From positions 192,001-256,000 of the forward strand of contig CAWKHF010000005.1 in NCBI GenBank assembly GCA_963849325.1: a DNA stretch of 64,000 nucleotides. Reading direction: 5' to 3'. Shown piece by piece: positions 50,275 to 63,428 of this stretch (positions within the stretch are counted from its first letter, which is position 1; every line of letters begins with the position of its first letter). The notes under the pieces are model-generated. The model was given only the letters and a program-made list of their open reading frames with translations, did not search any database and was not told the origin of the DNA. Source of the DNA: an uncultured Planctomycetota bacterium (GTDB lineage: Bacteria > Planctomycetota > Planctomycetia > Gemmatales > Gemmataceae). The translations under genes and the position numbers were made by a program.

Positions 50275-50313
50275 CAACACCAGAAACGATTCACGCACCC
50301 CCGCACGCGAGAC

Positions 50314-52162
<1,849 letters not shown>

Positions 52163-52373: not shown

Positions 52374-54033
52374 ATGCGCCGCATCCGTTGCCCCGCTTGC
52401 GAGCGGACCCTGAAGGTGTCCGAAGACAACGACCGCGCCACCGTCTGTTGCGCCGCGTGCGGTCACCAGATTGTCCTCGACGAGCCAGACGAAGAAGCCG
52501 AGCAAGAGCGGCGCCGCTCTTCCTCGAAGAAGGGCCCTTCCCCGCGTGCCGCGCAGGACTGGGTCGGGAGGTCTTTTCGGAAAGATTTATGGCCAGATCG
52601 TCGAGGTCGAAACGGGGACCGTTATTCCCCGCTCCACGGGGAAAATCGCGCTGGTGATGGCGTCGTTGGGGATCGCGGTCGTGACCGGCTTGTTCAGTGC
52701 CGTCGGCGGCGGCTGGGCCGTGCTCGCCGGCCTGGGGTTTTTCAAGAACAACCAGAACCCGGTCCTGGTCGTGGCGGCGGGGGTCGTTGTTTTTCTGCTG
52801 GGCCTGTTCCTGCTGCTTCTGGGAGGGTACTACTTCACCTTTTACATCGTGCGGCTGCGCCACAAGGAGCGCGTCATCATTGGCCGAAAATACCTGCAAA
52901 GCCTTTTCGACGAGGCCAAGGCCAACATGCAGCTCCCCTTCGACAACATCGCGGCCATTCGCCTGGGCACGAAAGTGGAGGGCGACAACAAGTATCAATA
53001 CATCGGCATCGATCTGCTCGACCTCCAGCGCGAAGACACGATTCTCAGCCCGGCCGGTCACCAGTCGTTTCGCAAAGATTTCGACGCGGATGCGGTCCTC
53101 TTCGATGAGTACGTGTTGCCCATCGAGACGTTCTACCACAAGCTCGTGGCGCGCTGGCGAAAGGTTGCCGGGGTGGACGCCGAGGCCGCGGCCGGGACGG
53201 CGCGGCGGCGCCGACAATCCCGCGACGAGGACGAGGACGATCGAGACGTGGATTATACGGGTTATCGTCCGCCCCTGAAGCGATCCACGCGGATCGTGCT
53301 CGGTCTGATGGCCGGGGGGATGGTGCTTCTGACCGTGCTGGTCGGCCTGGCCTGGGTGGCGAAGCAGAGGAACATGGTCCCGCCGCGGGCGAACGTCAAC
53401 GGAAACCCCGTGCCCCCGAACCCGAACGAACCGCAGACGACCCTTCCTCCCCGGATTACCGGCGACGCCGCCCTGGACAAAACGCTTGCGGACATCAACA
53501 GCAACAACCCGTTTGTCCGTCAGACCGCCCTCACCAGCCTGGCCCAGATGCCGCCCAACGAACACCGGCCGCTGGTCGCGGCGAAATTGGCCGTTTTGGC
53601 CGACAGTCCGGACGCCAACACGCGCCAGGCCGTCCTGCCGGCGCTGGGCACGTGGGCAACGCCGGCGGAGGTGCCGATCCTGATCAAGACCCTCAACGAC
53701 CCCAACCCGTTCGTGCGCGAGGAAGCGCTCAAAGTTGTCGGCCCATTCAAGGACGAGCGTGCCTTGGCGCCGGTGATGCGTTGTTTTCGCAACCTTTCCA
53801 CGCGCGATCCGGCCAGCAAGGCCTTGCGGGAGATGGGGCCGATGGCGGAGAAAGATGTGCTGGCGCTGCTGCGCGACCGGGACGTGCTACTGCGGCAGGC
53901 CGCCATCAAGGTCCTCAAGGACGTTGGCACCCCGCGAAGCGTGCCGGCCCTGGAACAGGCGGCGGCCGACGCCTTCCTGCGGCCATCGGCCCGCGAAGCG
54001 CTGGCGGCCATCGCTGCCCGGAACAAGCCGTAA
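52374..54033 (+). CDS. Zinc-ribbon + TM + HEAT-repeat protein (frameshifted near 5' end)
   Basis: CPACERTL..CAACG; TM helices; repeats DPNPFVREEALKVVG, DRDVLLRQAAIKVL. Confidence 0.8.
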
Positions 54034-54172
54034 GGATGCGCCGCGGGCGGCGGTACGGCAGAGAATGGGTTGGCGCCGCGAATTCTCCTCAAGTCCCTCG
54101 GCGGAAAATCCGAAAGAATCGTTAGGTCTTCACCAGGTCTCCCTTTCGGAAAAGTTCGCAGGAGGACACGGC

Positions 54173-54763
54173 GTGTCATCCCCCGGGACCATCCCGATCG
54201 CGGGCCATCCCTTGTCCCGCTGGCTGATAAACGCCGGAGCAGGAGTGGGTGCGCTGCTGCTGGGATTGCTCACGGGAGAGGTGATGGCTTCGGTTTCCTT
54301 GCGGGCCTTGCGCTCGCCGGCGGTCGTGCGGGTCTGGTCGGCCGTGCCGCGATGGGCCGAGTCCGTGGATTTCGGGACGATGGAACAGAAGTTGGCGGGT
54401 GGGACCGTCATCCTCGTCGCTGGCAATTCCGTCATCGTCCTGGGATTCGCCATCCTTTTGTTCCGCCGCCGTCGCGCGAAACCAGGAGGGACCGACAAGG
54501 GGGGCGAACGCGCTCGGCCGATGGAAGTCGGCCCCCAACAACCTTGTGCTCCTCCGGCTCGGGCCGTCGTGTTGACCGGCCGGGAGTGGAGTCCGCCCTT
54601 GGAGGCCGCCGAGCGTCCGCCCGAGCCGGTTCGCCCCCAAGAGAAAAACGATGCGATGCTTCGACAGATTTTCGAGCAGAATCGGTTGCTGAGGGAACAA
54701 TTCGTCCGCCGAAACCCCCAGCCCACGGGAGCCCGTAAGTCGGGTGTGGCGGTCAGACCGTGA
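54173..54763 (+). CDS. Membrane protein upstream of MamK-like actin
   Basis: SD aggagg + GTG; two hydrophobic segments, RRRR stop-transfer, Pro linker, MLRQIFEQNRLLREQ helix. Confidence 0.6.
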   Translation: MSSPGTIPIAGHPLSRWLINAGAGVGALLLGLLTGEVMASVSLRALRSPAVVRVWSAVPRWAESVDFGTMEQKLAGGTVILVAGNSVIVLGFAILLFRRRRAKPGGTDKGGERARPMEVGPQQPCAPPARAVVLTGREWSPPLEAAERPPEPVRPQEKNDAMLRQIFEQNRLLREQFVRRNPQPTGARKSGVAVRP

Positions 54764-54783
54764 ATGCCAGGGGAGGACGTGAA

Positions 54784-55866
54784 ATGAGCAAGGAAATCGT
54801 GTTTGTCGGCATGGACCTGGGGGCGTTCAAAACGTCCATCACCTCCTCGAACGGGGCGCGCGAAGTCGTCTATACCGCCGTCGGCTGGCCGCGCGATCAG
54901 GTGGCCCGCAACCTGCTGGGCCGCGACGTGGTTTTCGGCGCGGAGATCGTCGAGCATCGCTTGGCCTTGAACGTGGTCCGTCCCTTCCAGAAGGGGCTGC
55001 TGAAGTACCTCGGCCACGTCGAGGCGGGCGTGCCCGAGGCGGAAGTGGAGAGACACCGGGAGGCGGCGCGGCTGATCGTGTCGCACGCTATGTCGCTGGC
55101 CAATCCGCCGGCCGGCGCCGCCATCTACGGCGTCATCGGCGCTCCCGCTCGGGCCAGTACGGCCAACAAGCAGTACCTCGTCGAGGCGGCGCGAGGGGCC
55201 TTCAACGCCGTCGCGGTCGTGTCCGAACCGTTCGCGGTGGCCTACGGCATGAACAGCCTCACCGATACGCTGGTGGTGGACATCGGGGCCGGCACCGTGG
55301 ATCTGTGCCCGATGTGCGGCGCCTACCCCGCCGACGAGGACCAGCTCACCCTGCCGGTGGGCGGCGACTACATCGACGAGGAGTTCCTGGATCGTCTGCA
55401 ACAGGTCTATCCCGATGTCCAGCTCAACGCCAAAATGGCCCGCGAGATCAAGGAGAAGTACGGCTTCGTTCACAACGTCGCCGACAAGGTGATGGTCGCC
55501 CTTCCGGTCAACGGCAAGATGAAAGAGCTGAACATCACTACGCCGCTGAAGGAGGCGTGTCAGAAGATGGCCCGCCCCGTGGTAACGGGCATTCAAACGC
55601 TGATCGCCCGCTACGACCCGGAGTACCAGGAGCGCTTGCTCAAGAACATTTTGCTCTGCGGCGGCGGCAGCCAGTTGAGGGGCTTCGACCTCTATCTGGA
55701 AGAGGGCTTGAAGGAATACGGAAGGGTCCGCGTCCATCGGGCTCCGGACTGCGTCTTCGCCGGGGCCTTCGGCGCCCTCAAGCTGGCGCGAAGCATGCGC
55801 AAGGAATACTGGGACGAGATGCGCAGCCGCGACACGCCTCGGGAGACGATGCGGGCCGCTGCCTGA
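54784..55866 (+). CDS. MamK-like bacterial actin
   Basis: GMDLG, VIGAPARASTANK, VVSEPFAVAYG, VVDIGAGTVDLC..PADEDQLTL, IKEKYGFV, DPEYQ..NILLCGGGSQ, GALKLA..YW. Confidence 0.88.
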   Translation: MSKEIVFVGMDLGAFKTSITSSNGAREVVYTAVGWPRDQVARNLLGRDVVFGAEIVEHRLALNVVRPFQKGLLKYLGHVEAGVPEAEVERHREAARLIVSHAMSLANPPAGAAIYGVIGAPARASTANKQYLVEAARGAFNAVAVVSEPFAVAYGMNSLTDTLVVDIGAGTVDLCPMCGAYPADEDQLTLPVGGDYIDEEFLDRLQQVYPDVQLNAKMAREIKEKYGFVHNVADKVMVALPVNGKMKELNITTPLKEACQKMARPVVTGIQTLIARYDPEYQERLLKNILLCGGGSQLRGFDLYLEEGLKEYGRVRVHRAPDCVFAGAFGALKLARSMRKEYWDEMRSRDTPRETMRAAA

Positions 55867-55891
55867 GACCGCATCCACGCGGAGTAGAGAG

Positions 55892-55962
55892 CTACCCCGC
55901 CTGGACTCGAACCAGGAAATGCAGAGCCAAAATCTGCTGTGTTACCATTACACCACGGGGTA
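55892..55962 (-). tRNA. tRNA-Gln(TTG)
   Basis: TACCCCG TGGTGTAATGGTAACAC, anticodon arm gcaga-TTTTGGC-tctgc, GGTTCGAGTCC. Confidence 0.93.
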
Positions 55963-56848: not shown

Positions 56849-59006
56849 ATGTCCGAACGAAATGATTCTCACCGCCTTGGAGCCATCGAGAACGGAGACC
56901 TGCGGAACGACGAGGGCGGCTTGCACGCGCCGCCGGGGTTGGGGCCGCTGGGCAAGGCGTGGTGGTGGTTCCACTTCGTCATTCTGGTCAAGTTGGCCCG
57001 GCTGCGCTTCCTCGCCGTCCTCGCGGCCATCGGCGGCGTCATCGCCTACTGGGACACGCTCAACGCCTATTACGAGAAGTGGACGCGGCCTCTCTTGGGT
57101 GCCGAAACCGCCGTCAGCTCTGGCACCGAATACTGGTGTCCCATGCACCCCACCGTCGTCCGCGATCACCCGGACAAGTGCCCTATCTGCGCCATGCCGC
57201 TGTCGCAGCGCAAGAAGGGCGACAAGGACGAGGGCGAAGCGCTGCCGCCGGGAGTCCGCCAGCGCGTGCAGATCACGCCGTACAAGGTCGCCGTCGCCGG
57301 CATCGAGACGGCCGAGGTCGGCTATCGACCGCTGACCCGGGACATCGCCGCCGTCGGCTTTGTGGAGTTTGACGAGCGCAAATTGGCTCGCATCTCGGTC
57401 CGCGTCACCGGCAAGACGCGGATCGACAAGCTCTACGTCAACGTCACCGGCCAACACGTCAAGAAGGGCGAGCCGCTGGCGGAACTGTATAGCCCCGATT
57501 TGGTTGTCGCCGTGCAGAACCTGCTTGATGCGCGCCAGGACCGCAACCGCCGATTGGAGGAGATGACCCGAGAGAAGCTGCGGCGATGGGGCATCGAGGA
57601 CGATCAGATCGACCGCATCGTCAAGAGCCGGCCAGCCGATCACCCACTTAATCATCCGTTCGCCGATCCACGGCCACATCATCAAGAAATATCCGGTCGA
57701 GGGCGAGTACGTCGAGGAGGGCACCCGCCTGTACGACGTGGCCGACCTGTCCACCGTGTGGATCGAGGCGCAGGTCTACGAGGACGAGCTGGCCTTCCTC
57801 AAGCTGGACCTACCCGTCGCCGCCACGACCAAGTCCTTCCCCAACCGCGAATTCAAAGGCAAGATCGCCTTCATCCACCCGCACCTGGACGCGGCAACGC
57901 GGACGCTGAAGGTGCGCTTCGACATGGACAATCCGGAACACGAACTGCGTCCGGGTATGTACGCCACCGTTCGCTTCCAGTCGTCCATCGCTCGCCTGGC
58001 GATGCTGCGCGAGCAGCGCCAACGGATGTGGAGTGAGCAGACGGCGTCGGAGCTGACGATGGCGGCGCTGTGGTCTCCGGGACTGCCGGCGGCGGGCGGC
58101 GGTCTGGCCTCGTTGCTGACAGCGGCGACGCGCGAAGCCATCGCCGAGCGCGACCTGGTGCTGGCCGTGCCCGAGTCAGCGGTGATCGACACCGGCAGCC
58201 GGCAGTTCGTCTACCGCGAGGCCGAGCCGGACGTTTACGACCAACTGGAAGTACAGCTGGGGCCGCGCAGCGGCGCGTTCTATCCCGTGATGGGCGGCCT
58301 GCGGCCCGGCGACCGCGTGGCGACGACCGGCTCGTTCCTCATCGACGCCGAGACGCGACTGACCGCCGGGGCCGCCTCCACCTACTTCGGCGCCAGCGGT
58401 GGGCCGCAGAGCGATCACCACGCCTCCACGACTGCCGCCCGCCCGTCGATGACGCGCGACGAGGACGCCAAGTATCAGGCGATGCTGGCCAAGCTCGGCC
58501 CGGAAGATCGGCCGCTCGTCGAGTCGCAGGGATATTGCCCGGTGCTGGGCAACCGGCTCGGCTCGATGGGTCCGCCGGTGCCGGTCGTGCTCCAGGGGCA
58601 AAAGGTCTTCCTGTGCTGCAAATTGTGCGTCAAGAAGGCGAAGGCCAACGCGAAAAAGACACTCGCCAAGGCGGCGGACCTGACGGCTCGGGCCAAGACC
58701 GGCGCGCCACGTCCCGCCCCAAGTCCGTCGCCCGCGCCGGGTCCGGGCGGAAAGTTGGAGGCCAAGGTGAGGGCCAACCTCGCCAAGCTCAGTGCCGAAG
58801 ACCGCCGTCTCGCCGAGGAGCAGAAATACTGCCCGATTGAGCCGGACAATCTCCTCGGTTCGATGGGAGTGCCGATCATCCTCGACATCAAGGGACAGAA
58901 GGTTTTCCTCTGCTGCTCCGGCTGTAAGGACGACGCCCTGGAGAAGCCGGACCAGACGTTGGCCAAGGTGAAGGAGCTGAAGGCCAAGGCGAAGAAACAC
59001 GAATAG
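56849..59006 (+). CDS. cusB: CusB-like RND adaptor with heavy-metal-binding domain and two C-terminal YHS/TRASH-like domains (frameshifted)
   Basis: YWCPMHP..CPICAMPL, LYSPDL, ADLSTVWIEA, TRTLKVRF, LRPGMYA, FLIDAE. Confidence 0.88.
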
Positions 59007-59143
59007 GCGCGGCAGAGACGGGGGCGGCGGCCGGCTTGGCGGAGAAGCAATCGGGTCGCGCTGATGCTTCGAGTTGAGTCCGGCCGTCCGCTCCCACCCG
59101 CGGCAACCCGTCGCTGGCGCTCCGGGCTGGTTGGAGGTAAACC

Positions 59144-62100
59144 ATGATCGAAAAACTCATCGAATACTCGATCCGCAATCGCTTTCTGGTCCTGATCGTG
59201 GCGGCCGCCCTGGCGATGTTCGCCGTCTACGCGGTGCTCAACACGCCCATGGACGCCGTGCCCGACCTGAGCGAGAACCAGGTCATCGTCTTCACCGACT
59301 GGATGGGCCGCAGTCCGCGCGAGATCGAGGATCAAATAACCTATCCTCTTTCTCTGAAGTTGCAAGGATTGGCTGGCGTCAAGACGGTGCGTTCGTCCTC
59401 GGAGTTCAACTTCTCGATGATTACGCTGATCTTCGAGGACAACATCGATTTCTACTTCGCCCGCCAGCGCGTGCTGGAACGCCTCACGCTGGCGAGCACG
59501 TTCCTGCCCGAAGGGGTGGTGCCCTACCTCGCCGCCGACACCACGGCGGTCGGACAAATCTTCTGGTACACGCTGGAGGGCGGCGAACTGGAGCCGGGCC
59601 GGCGCTGGGCCTTGCAGAAGTATTACGTCGGGCCGGAGATCAATTCGGTGCCCGGCGTGGCCGAGGTCGGCACCGTCGGCGGCGCGCCGCTGGAATATCA
59701 GATCGACGTCGATCCCAACGCCCTGCGCGCCTACAACATCACGCTCGGCGAACTGTATGAAGCGGTGGCCCGCAGCAACTCGGCCGTCGGCGGCCGCGTC
59801 GTGCAGAAGAACAACGCCGAGTACCTCATCCGCGGCGTCGGCTGGATCGAGAACACACGCGACATCGAAAACACGGTCATCACGCAGCGCGGCGGGACGC
59901 CGATCTACGTCAAGAACGTTGCGGTCGTGCAGAGGGGCACGCAGTTTCGCCGCAGTGTCTTCATCAAGGGCGGCAACGAAGTGGTCGGCGCCGCCGTCAT
60001 GATGCGCCACGGTGAGAACCCGTTGGCCGTCACCAATCGCATCAAGCAAAAGATCCAGGAGCTGCAATCGGCCCTGCCGCCCGGCGTTCACATCGTCCCC
60101 GCCTACGACCGCACGCGCCTGATTCACGGGGCGATTCACAACGTCACCGAAGTGATGGGACATGAAATGCTCATCGCCAGTGTCGCCATTTTGCTTATCC
60201 TCATGCACTTCCGCAGCGTCTTCGTCATCTGCGTGACGCTGCCGTTGGCGGTGCTGTTCTCGTTCCTGATGATGTGGGTGCTGCGCGTCCTGCACATTCT
60301 CGACGTACAGGCCAACATCATGTCGCTGGCCGGCATCACCATCTCCATCGGCATTCTCGTCGATCAGGCCATCGTCATGGTCGAGAACGCCACGCATCAT
60401 CTCAAGGAGCACTTCGGCGACAAGCCGGTGCGGGGCAATAACACGGAGATCATCGTCCGTGCCTGCCGCACGGTCGGCCGGCCGATCTTCTTCTCGGTGA
60501 TGATTATCTTGATCTCTTTTATCCCCGTTTTCGCCATGAGCGGCCGCGAGGGCAAGTACTTTCACCCGATGGCCTTCACGAAAAGTTTGGCGATGGTCGG
60601 TGTCGCCCTCATCTCGGTGACGGTGGTGCCGGCCTTGATTCCGATGTTCATTCGAGGACGCATCCGCGGCGAGGAGGAAAACCCGATCGTCCGCAGTTTC
60701 ATCCACATCTACAAACCGCTTTTGACTTGGGCGCTGCCGCGACGCAACCTCGTCATGGGAATGTTCGCCGTCCTGCTGATCCTGGCCGCCGGCATGTTCC
60801 CCTTGCAGGCCGTGCTCGGCCTAGGGGCGGCGCATCACGACTGGGAGATGTGCTTTTTCGCCACCGTGGCCGTGGTGACGTTCCTGACCGTGATCTTCAT
60901 TCGCGGCTGGCACTGGCAGCTTTTGAGCTTCGCCACCCTGGTGGCGATCAGTTTGGCGGCCTATCACTTTCCGAAGATCGGCGTCGAGTTCATGCCGGCG
61001 CTCAACGAACAGACCGCGATGTACATGCCCATCACGGTGCCGCGCGCCAGCGTGACGCAGGTGGCCGACGATCTCAAAATCCAGGACGCACTGTTGCGTC
61101 AGTTTCCCGAGGTCGAGTCGGCGGTCAACAAGGCGGGCCGGGCGGACACGCCGACCGACCCGGCGCCGCTGGAAATGGTCGAGACGTTCGTGAACTTCCG
61201 GCCCGAGGAACTGTGGCCGCGGCGAGCGATGGCCTTCGACGATGCCGCCCGACAGACTCGGCTCCTTCTGGCCGCCCTGGAGCAGCGCGGCTACGTCCAG
61301 CCGGCCGCCGCCGACGAGCGCGACGCGCTCGTCAACGACGCCACGATGGGCGCCCTGACCAAGTTCGACGAAGTGATGCGCGATCTGGCCCTCGAACGCT
61401 ACCGCGCCTTCGAGCGCGAACTGATGCCGATGATGACGCGCTTCGTCGTCGAAGACACGGTGCGGCGTTTCCGCGCCGCCGACCTGCTGCGCTGGCCTGT
61501 CGGCACGAGTGAGCAAACGGAGATCGACCAGCTGGTCGAGGATTTGACGCCGCTGTACGGCGCCTGGTTGTCGCGCCATCCCGCTCTGGAGGACGTGACC
61601 GGGGTGACGCAGGCCGTCGCGCAGCGGTTGTCCGAGCGCCAGGCGTTAACGGTGACGCCTGCCAACGCCTTGGAACTGCGCGAAGCGGTGCCGCTGCGCG
61701 TCTTCGAACGCCGTCGCCGAATCGCTGGGGGTCGAGAGGAAGACGTTCGCCGGCGAGATACGGAAAGCGATGGAGAAACGCCGCCACGAATGGTGGATCG
61801 AGCGTATCCATAAAAAGATCAATTGGGAACTGTTCGACCGGGGCGTCGAGGCGTTCACCTGGTCGGCGTTGGAGGAAATTGGCAATTCCGCCAAGCAGCG
61901 CGACCTGCTCGGCGCCGCGCCACACGGCGAGGAATATGGCCGCTTCGTCGAGGAATCCAATCGCGCCCGCAACGGCAAGGAACACGACACGGACGCCCTG
62001 ACGCCCTTCATCGCCTTGCGGGAGGAGTTGGAGAAACCTTTCGCCAAGAAGCTGATTCTCTGGCAGCGCAAGGGCGGCCCCAAGGGCGACCTGGCCCAGG

Positions 62101-63428
62101 AGATGAACGACGTGGTGCAGATGCCCGGTTGGAGCAACATCTGGACCATGCCCATTCAGAATCGCGTGGACATGCTGTCCACCGGCGTGCGCACGCAAAT
62201 CGGCGTCAAGGTGTTCGGCCCCGACCTGGATACGATCAACGACGTGTGCAAGCGGGTCGAGCAGGTCATCAAGCCCATCCCCGGCGCGATGTATGTAACT
62301 GCCGAGGAGTTCATGGGCAAGGGCTATATCGAGATCAAGATAGACCGGGAAAAGGCGGCGCGCTACGGCGTGCGCGTCGGCGACATCCAGGACACCATCG
62401 AGGTGGCCCTGGGCGGCAAGGTCATCACGCAGACGGTCGAGGGCCGTGATCGCTTCCCGGTGCGCGTCCGCTATGCCCGCGATTTCCGAGAGGACGAGCA
62501 GGCCGTCAAGCGTCTGCTCGTCAGTCGCGGCAGCATGGCCCGCTCCTCCGCGATGGGTGGCGCGGATACGCACGAGGTCGCCCCGTGGCACGCCGCCGAC
62601 GGCAATGTTCCGCTGCAAATTCCCCTCGCCGAGTTGGCCGAGGTGCGCGTCGTCGAGGGGCCGGCCATGATTAAAAGCGAGAATGGGCGGTTGCGCAACT
62701 ACGTCACCCTGAACGTGCGCGGCGACCGCGACATCGTTGGTTTCGTCGAGGAGGCCCAGCGCGTCGTGGCCGAGAAGGTCCAGCTGCCGGAGGGCGTTCA
62801 TCTGGAATGGTCCGGCGAGTTCGAGCATCAGGTTCGCGCCGCCAAGACGCTGCGCATCATCCTGCCGATGGTGCTGGTGCTGATCTTCGTCATCCTGTAT
62901 CTGACGTACAAGGACTGGATGGACGCCTGTTTGATGATGCTGGCGGTGCCGGAGGCGTTGGCTGGCGGCGTCTTCTTCCAGTTCTTCTTCCCCAAGCTGA
63001 CGCACGGCTGGTCCAGTCCGCCCGAGCCGTTCACCTTGGCGATGTGGGTCGGCTACATCGCCGCCTTCGGCATGGCCACCGAGACCGGCATCATCATGCT
63101 CGTTTATCTCCGCGAGGCCATCGACAAGCGCGGCGGCCTGGAGAAGATCGAGTCGCTGGAGGAGCTGCGTCAGGCGGTGATCGAGGGGGCGGTGCATCGA
63201 CTGCGGCCAAAGTTGTTGACCGAGGGCGTGGCCATCGTCGCCATCGCGCCGATGCTCTTTTCCACCGGCGTCGGCAGCGAGATCATCTCGGCGATGGCCC
63301 TGCCGGTGCTGGGCGGTTTGCTCATCGCCGATGAGGTGGTCGATGTGTTTCTGCCGGTGCGTTTCTACTGGGTGCGGCGGGCGCGCTGGCTGAAGATCCA
63401 CCAGCAGCGCTCCGAGCCTGAAGCGTAA
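59144..63428 (+). CDS. cusA: CusA-family heavy-metal RND permease with large insertion (frameshifted)
   Basis: DAVPDLSENQVIVFT, NIMSLAG, YMP, DPAPLEMVET, IQNRVDMLSTG, MIKSENG, FGMATETG, RLRPKL. Confidence 0.93.

Follow-up and report, generated by a model that had tools for sequence, protein, structure and literature searches.

The locus at positions 54173–55866 of the 64,000-nucleotide stretch of planctomycete DNA analysed here (the window) is a conserved two-gene unit, in which a gene for a MamK-type actin directly follows the gene for a membrane protein. MamK-like actins per se were already known, and what the locus adds as new is a clade of membrane-anchored partners. Sequence comparisons make it probable, in our judgement, that a portable helix docks MamK-type actin, in this case at the inner membrane. 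Few accessory factors are known for bacterial actins, and with a helix this short and transplantable, peptide binding can be tested directly on MamKs of the planctomycete, amidase-linked and magnetosome kinds. Adaptors of MamK outside Magnetospirillum are treated as an open question in the available text of PMC10653835. A literature search returned no account of the partner or of the helix, including in the portions available of PMC12748827, PMC9840458, PMC12713370, PMC11032199, PMC6952346 and PMC7203096; such actins may be listed in subscription papers, in supplementary files to the saltatorellin preprint or further on in PMC7203096.

Both genes lie on the forward strand. The partner gene (54173–54763; 196 aa) starts at GTG 54173, preceded at 7 nt by a ribosome-binding site, AGGAGG (54160–54165), and ends with a TGA at 54763; the actin gene (54784–55866; 360 aa) runs from ATG 54784 to a TGA at 55866. 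A first-pass annotation had the upstream reading frame ending 20 nt before this ATG and overlapping an alternative GTG, and so it does: the spacing is 20 nt and the partner stop overlaps GTG 54760, over which ATG 54784 is favoured as the actin start because of a ribosome-binding site, GGAGG, at 54772–54776 (forward strand). Third-position GC is 0.74 in the partner gene and 0.87 in the actin gene, and a promoter and terminator scan of the locus gave no signal exceeding that of shuffled sequences. A tRNA-Gln gene lies 3′ of the actin gene on the opposite strand (55891–55962), and a tRNA stands beside the actin at one of 33 family loci. On the 5′ side of the pair is a gene for a HEAT-repeat membrane protein (52471–54033). 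Neither this gene nor the downstream ORF had a counterpart elsewhere when 202 loci were compared, and the HEAT-repeat neighbour was rejected as a counterpart of Mad23, having no match at other loci. Further out, what we take from the sequence to be a glmS-like gene (50291–52162) and a CusB/CusA-like efflux operon (56849–63428) are each broken across several frames, most likely by assembly errors.

The actin belongs with the MamK-like actins of planctomycetes and is not a magnetosome MamK, BeeR or MreB. All of the motifs on which the first-pass annotation had called it MamK-like rather than MreB-like are present, and the profile scores agree: 379 bits on the NCBIfam MamK model NF040964 (just below its cut-off of 400), 216 bits on the BeeR model NF053558 (cut-off 530) and 50–53 bits on the MreB models (cut-offs 293–366). 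Because 86 of 351 genomes of the phylum exceed the NF040964 cut-off, a score on this model is not by itself a marker of magnetosome genes. The nearest sequences with solved structures are those of MamK (247 bits, 36–37% identity), followed by BeeR (150 bits). The AF2 model of the actin (pLDDT 88) has MamK as its top Foldseek matches, with a TM score of 0.87 to 5ljv, and its first strand starts at residue 5, leaving no BeeR-type N-terminal extension of 30–50 aa. Residues D11, G13, D166, G168, T171 and D173, which bind nucleotide, are invariant in 93/93 aligned rows, and E148 is kept in 92/93. A glutamate occupies the site of the non-polymerising MamK change A278D; an acidic residue is also found there in six of the nine rows of the magnetosome-cluster MamK clade. 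The gene is single-copy in the genome, and its nearest named homologs are labelled Gemmataceae, Pirellulales or Planctomycetota, from which the family is taken to be Gemmataceae.

The actin was also placed in an MreB-rooted tree of 75 rows, built without ParM, Magnetospirillum MamK, BeeR or saltatorellin sequences and leaving out 40 of the 59 loci of one set, the frameshifted loci L070 and L071, 12 of 30 phylum-search loci, 10 of 20 loci from the phylum of genome G444 and all 21 new family-search loci. Here the actin falls within a 13-row clade (100/100) nested in an 18-row planctomycete clade (100/98), the MreB rows stand apart on a long branch, and the magnetosome-cluster MamKs form a separate 9-row clade (100/100), two members of which are shown about 3 kb from a mamM gene over cut-off. 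The phylogeny that had been called for as a check of the family assignment thus places the protein with MamK-type proteins and apart from MreB, ParM lying outside the tree.

The partner contains, in order, a hydrophobic N-terminal segment, a short predicted periplasmic stretch, a transmembrane helix, a proline-rich linker and a conserved tail helix. The first of these (residues 23–41; 54239–54295, forward strand) has a Kyte–Doolittle peak of 1.7 and may act as a signal-like segment or signal anchor. The predicted transmembrane helix (residues 79–97; 54407–54463, forward strand) peaks at 2.6 and is followed by RRRRAK, on account of which the positive-inside rule, the basis for the topology, predicts a cytoplasmic tail. 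This tail carries a 13-residue conserved amphipathic helix, MLRQIFEQNRLLR (residues 162–174; 54656–54694, forward strand), which profile comparisons make a candidate actin-docking element. A single-sequence AF2 model with a mean pLDDT of 55.5 places a helix at residues 155–180, with pLDDT 80–86 at residues 161–180. From the earlier description of the protein as one transmembrane segment, a proline linker and a C-terminal helix, the linker and the helix stand, and the single membrane segment gives way to two hydrophobic segments. The partner has no Pfam family and no meaningful NCBIfam match, and a search of a protein atlas gave no usable match, an outcome that carries no weight.

The window's partner is a short form of a protein that usually measures 300–450 aa in its relatives. 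A full-length relative adjoins the actin gene in genome G045 (29% identity over 167 columns, E 1e-7); the two proteins are shortened and lack both the periplasmic arm motif and the FDLGP motif, and a 50-column model of the long tail fails to detect the window's own partner. That long-tail model finds 366 representatives at 50% identity among 1.84 billion proteins. Among the best 150 of these, the asparagine of the helix is kept in 149, and 92 are long, of which 90 have a hydrophobic segment 27–74 residues before the tail. From the long representatives, the usual partner consists of a signal-like segment, a low-complexity arm, one transmembrane helix, a linker, FDLGP and the helix. A second short motif, approximately [VI]E[IQM][YW][YHR]G.[KR][RK]V, lies in the predicted periplasmic part, a short way past the signal-like segment (L063-L069, L071, L171-L190; P0159-P0308). 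It occurs in 42 of the 92 long partners and in none of the reversed sequences, and in 20 of 35 upstream regions with none on the reverse strand; the pattern, for which 8 loci had served as the basis of a fit by eye, matched 12 of 23 further loci. It is absent from the window's partner. A supposed likeness of this motif to the tail of a pilus protein (CpaB) was discarded; of the two candidates in the same genome, one was a TIM barrel and the other a VWA protein. In one genus, three genomes (G1226, G1224 and G1227) have two tail-bearing genes each, arranged in tandem before the actin in G1226:C1:6444-7556.

Adjacency and conservation of the upstream gene, the latter a test set by the first-pass annotation, are borne out across the family. 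The tail motif (50-column model) is present in 46 of 252 family genomes, 44 of which also carry the actin, out of 49 actin genomes in all; in all 44 the tail precedes the actin match by no more than 450 nt and shares its strand, and 10 of the 44 contributed to the tail model. Of the two tail genomes without an actin match, one is 81% complete and the other stands at E 8.7e-4, and the five actin genomes without a tail match include the window's short form, another short form (G1244) and a contig end (G1116). In 11/11 relatives the gene upstream of the actin ends in a similar helix, with 10/11 over the hydrophobic-segment threshold and three loci frameshifted. Among 21 further family loci examined, all 20 with room upstream have a hydrophobic segment and helix in that position, compared with 0/17 downstream genes. 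Every actin of the window's clade (13/13) has a membrane-type partner, that of L069 lying marginally below the hydropathy threshold, and the partners at sister-group loci L001, L002, L004 and L006 are soluble coiled-coil proteins.

The helix can be traced with a profile built from 17 other planctomycete helices, the window's own being excluded. These training helices were chosen by a pattern requiring the asparagine and hydrophobic residues at five positions, so that for the training set, and for it alone, conservation at those columns is circular. Against six-frame translations of the genome the window's ORF ranks first of 107,907 segments (E 0.014, the next at 0.9), and no convincing further copies that could serve as cargo tags were found in the same genome. 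In the blind planctomycete set, the upstream gene scored above all 60 of its shuffles at 27 of 28 loci, one of these genes duplicating a training sequence; 7 of 28 downstream genes did so too, and these carry recombinase domains without the asparagine. A resolvase and recombinase-domain gene lies 3′ of the actin in one planctomycete family (L076, L078, L079, L081, L085, L089 and L098). The helix is absent upstream in L005 and L008 and degenerate in L006. A search for natural helix–actin fusions among 21 longer homologs found no true case: the sole strong match, P0138, is a read-through of the frameshifted G058, and four weaker candidates (scores 7–11) carry by eye a different motif.

The helix also recurs on other neighbours of MamK-like genes. 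Among 13,853 locus segments, the best non-training match after the window was the N-terminus of an amidase (E 0.0045), and most of the non-training matches that came next were also N-terminal, in Amidase_3 proteins whose genes stand immediately ahead of MamK-like genes in Nitrospirota, Aminicenantes and others. Shuffle tests were run on mechanically picked upstream and downstream genes, in sets that share a few genomes and contain kin that are not independent. The first non-planctomycete, amidase-type set beat 60 shuffles at 37/47 upstream and 0/46 downstream genes, counts that are not independent because the amidases are one family; the corresponding figures were 11/20 and 0/18 for Nitrospirota loci and 4/22 and 0/17 for MamK-like loci of Desulfobacterota. 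The low upstream count in the last group indicates that many MamK-type actins work without an adjacent helix. The reverse test was weaker: a matrix built from the amidase helices alone places the window's helix 69th of 107,907 segments; with it, 3 of 19 planctomycete helices outscore all of the background segments, and several relatives are missed. In genomes G934 and G954, where a mamM gene over cut-off lies about 3 kb from mamK, the latter is immediately preceded by a gene whose product ends in a comparable helix, FLKSIVMENVELR, with a weak motif score of 10.8. The order man1-mamK-man2-mad10-man3-mamP-mamM is given for Nitrospirota magnetosome clusters in the part of PMC8353452 available to us, and position in this order suggests that the gene before mamK in G934 and G954 is man1, from which the name is taken. 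A supposed occurrence of the helix in Mad-type clusters of Desulfobacterota was not upheld, the 20 regions compared showing man1-like and amidase cases only. The amidase–actin pair is itself conserved in Nitrospirota, Aminicenantes and others, often with a receiver and SPOR-domain gene after it (L009-L059, L154-L166), and in the phylum of G445 the MamK-like loci L110-L114, L116 and L120 have a conserved 117-aa upstream gene without the helix.

These observations suggest a mechanism in which the helix of the partner's cytoplasmic tail likely binds the actin, and the tail-bound filament, predicted to be ATP-driven, would be held at the inner membrane. That the actin forms dynamic filaments is expected by analogy with MamK and saltatorellin. 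The helix, with its broad hydrophobic face and nearly invariant asparagine, would be a portable docking tag, since it recurs on unrelated neighbours of MamK-like genes, namely coiled-coil proteins, membrane-anchored cell-wall amidases and the product of the gene before mamK in Nitrospirota magnetosome clusters. Docking to actin is the simplest reading because the motif shifts between the C-terminus, in coiled-coil and membrane proteins, and the N-terminus, in amidases, while the actin is the sole constant neighbour. In the longer relatives, the low-complexity periplasmic arm with its second short motif may reach a partner in the envelope, in which case the unit would serve to place some feature of the envelope or membrane along the filament. 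Its patchy distribution points to an accessory job and not to division. The first-pass reading, in which a filament with a membrane adaptor positions some structure other than a magnetosome, is supported in part. No other filament-type actin system was found in the tested family genomes, and the pair is therefore a candidate organiser of membranes in cells whose internal membranes are complex. More tentatively, and with the balance of probability against it, the 13-residue helix may be a universal, swappable docking element for MamK-type actins, a counterpart of eukaryotic actin-binding tags. The planctomycete family would then have put it on a trans-envelope anchor to give a membrane-attached actin cytoskeleton without MreB or FtsZ, and in deep-branching magnetotactic bacteria the tag on the man1-position protein would provide the MamJ equivalent that is missing there.

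The helix might instead bind the actin as a regulator (a nucleator, a capper or a factor in turnover) and determine the sites at which filaments begin or stop, and not act as a cargo tether. The short amphipathic helices of WH2 type that bind eukaryotic actin do regulate assembly and offer a parallel, and there is hardly any periplasmic portion in the window's partner with which to hold cargo. MamJ/LimJ and McaA/B are likewise described, in the passages available of PMC10653835 and PMC13170167, as altering MamK dynamics. We nevertheless regard regulation as an unlikely explanation, because tethering better fits a helix that is also carried by Amidase_3 enzymes and by proteins with long periplasmic arms bearing a conserved motif of their own.

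Improbable to a similar degree is that the helix is a short coiled coil for self-association, or that its target is a third conserved protein or the membrane surface, so that adjacency to the actin gene would reflect co-regulation with any actin contact made elsewhere. Helix positions 2, 5, 9 (the asparagine) and 12 fit an a-d-a-d heptad, the pattern of asparagine-containing dimeric zippers, and similar-looking windows arise by chance, with 81 of 107,907 genome segments scoring at least 12. Against a plain dimer, positions 1, 6 and 10 are hydrophobic too and widen the face beyond what it would need. Against a third partner, the actin is the sole conserved neighbour, the HEAT-repeat gene and downstream ORF being unmatched in the 202 loci and the tRNA recurring at the one locus in 33.

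Docking of the helix to the actin therefore remains our preferred reading, and the genome and its relatives bear on what such a unit might do. In the 84.7%-complete genome FtsZ was not found, in keeping with the earlier statement that the group divides without it. Full-length MreB was not found either: the best match to MreB_Mbl is the MamK-like actin gene itself and the other seven matches span only the N-terminal part of the model. Nor was MreB found in any of three tested family genomes that carry the actin, two control genomes being positive. The MamK-like actin was detected in 129 of 351 genomes of the phylum, so that an orphan of this kind, described before as saltatorellin, is not unusual there. 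Elsewhere, 20 of 251 genomes carry it in the phylum to which G444 belongs, and 17 of 401 in the phylum of G445. The missing FtsZ and MreB might be taken to place the pair in the budding or division machinery of planctomycetes that have neither, the more so as planctomycete budding is mechanistically unexplained in the text seen of PMC6952346. This is very unlikely to be so: across the family the actin was found in just 49 of 252 genomes (24 of the 135 that are of high quality), and within the genus in 1 of 10 others, which makes a core division role unlikely.

The first-pass annotation had also placed the actin outside any magnetosome cluster, and this holds in the 84.7%-complete genome, where none of mamA, mamB, mamE, mamM or mamP is over cut-off (best scores against cut-offs: MamA 84/200, MamB 109/350, MamE 173/800, MamM 107/350, MamP 34/300). 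A relic or outpost of a magnetosome cluster hidden in the unassembled part of the genome is scarcely credible, for although the genome is incomplete, the search spanned MamA/B/E/M/P, and curated cut-offs miss deep-branching mam genes (238 bits in G445 and 226 in G498 against 350), the genome's one CDF reaches 107–109 bits only and lies on another contig, the magnetosome-cluster MamKs form their own 9-row clade, and dozens of relatives retain both genes intact.

Among known systems, saltatorellin of Saltatorellus ferox Poly30, for which filaments are described in both E. coli and M. gryphiswaldense (bioRxiv 10.1101/817700), resembles the window's actin and may be its counterpart: it too is MamK-like, comes from a bacterium of the planctomycete radiation that is not magnetic, and has a function that is open. 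The saltatorellin strains differ in also encoding MreB, which was not found in the window's genome, and the available text of the preprint (10.1101/817700) names no partner gene. Magnetosome MamK (PDB 5ljv, 5ljw, 5jyg) is the nearest solved structure and shares the placement of an adaptor gene directly upstream of the actin gene, as given for MamJ and Mg-1g50 in the excerpts available of PMC10653835. The window's actin is set apart from it by a score under the NF040964 cut-off, by a genome in which no mam genes were found and by its separate clade. The partner is a membrane protein without a Pfam family, a putative point of difference from MamJ; McaA is a membrane-spanning regulator of MamK, according to the part seen of PMC13170167. 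BeeR of Verrucomicrobiota (PDB 8r2n) is likewise a non-magnetosome MamK relative of unknown function in the accessible text of PMC11929497, but it is 30% identical and has a disordered N-terminal extension of 30–50 aa that the window's actin lacks. The Man1-position protein (about 170 aa) shares with the window's partner a place immediately ahead of the actin gene and a helix of comparable kind at its end; the role suggested for Man1 in the portions available of PMC8353452 and PMC9840458 is in crystal size or shape and not in actin binding.

The set of longer homologs also contained extended, fused and intein-bearing forms (P0139-P0156). Some MamK-like actins have N-terminal extensions of 350–990 aa, some of these being labelled KSB1 (P0139-P0152, P0156), P0154 and P0155 are intein-containing MamK-like proteins, and P0153 is a fusion of FtsZ with MamK.
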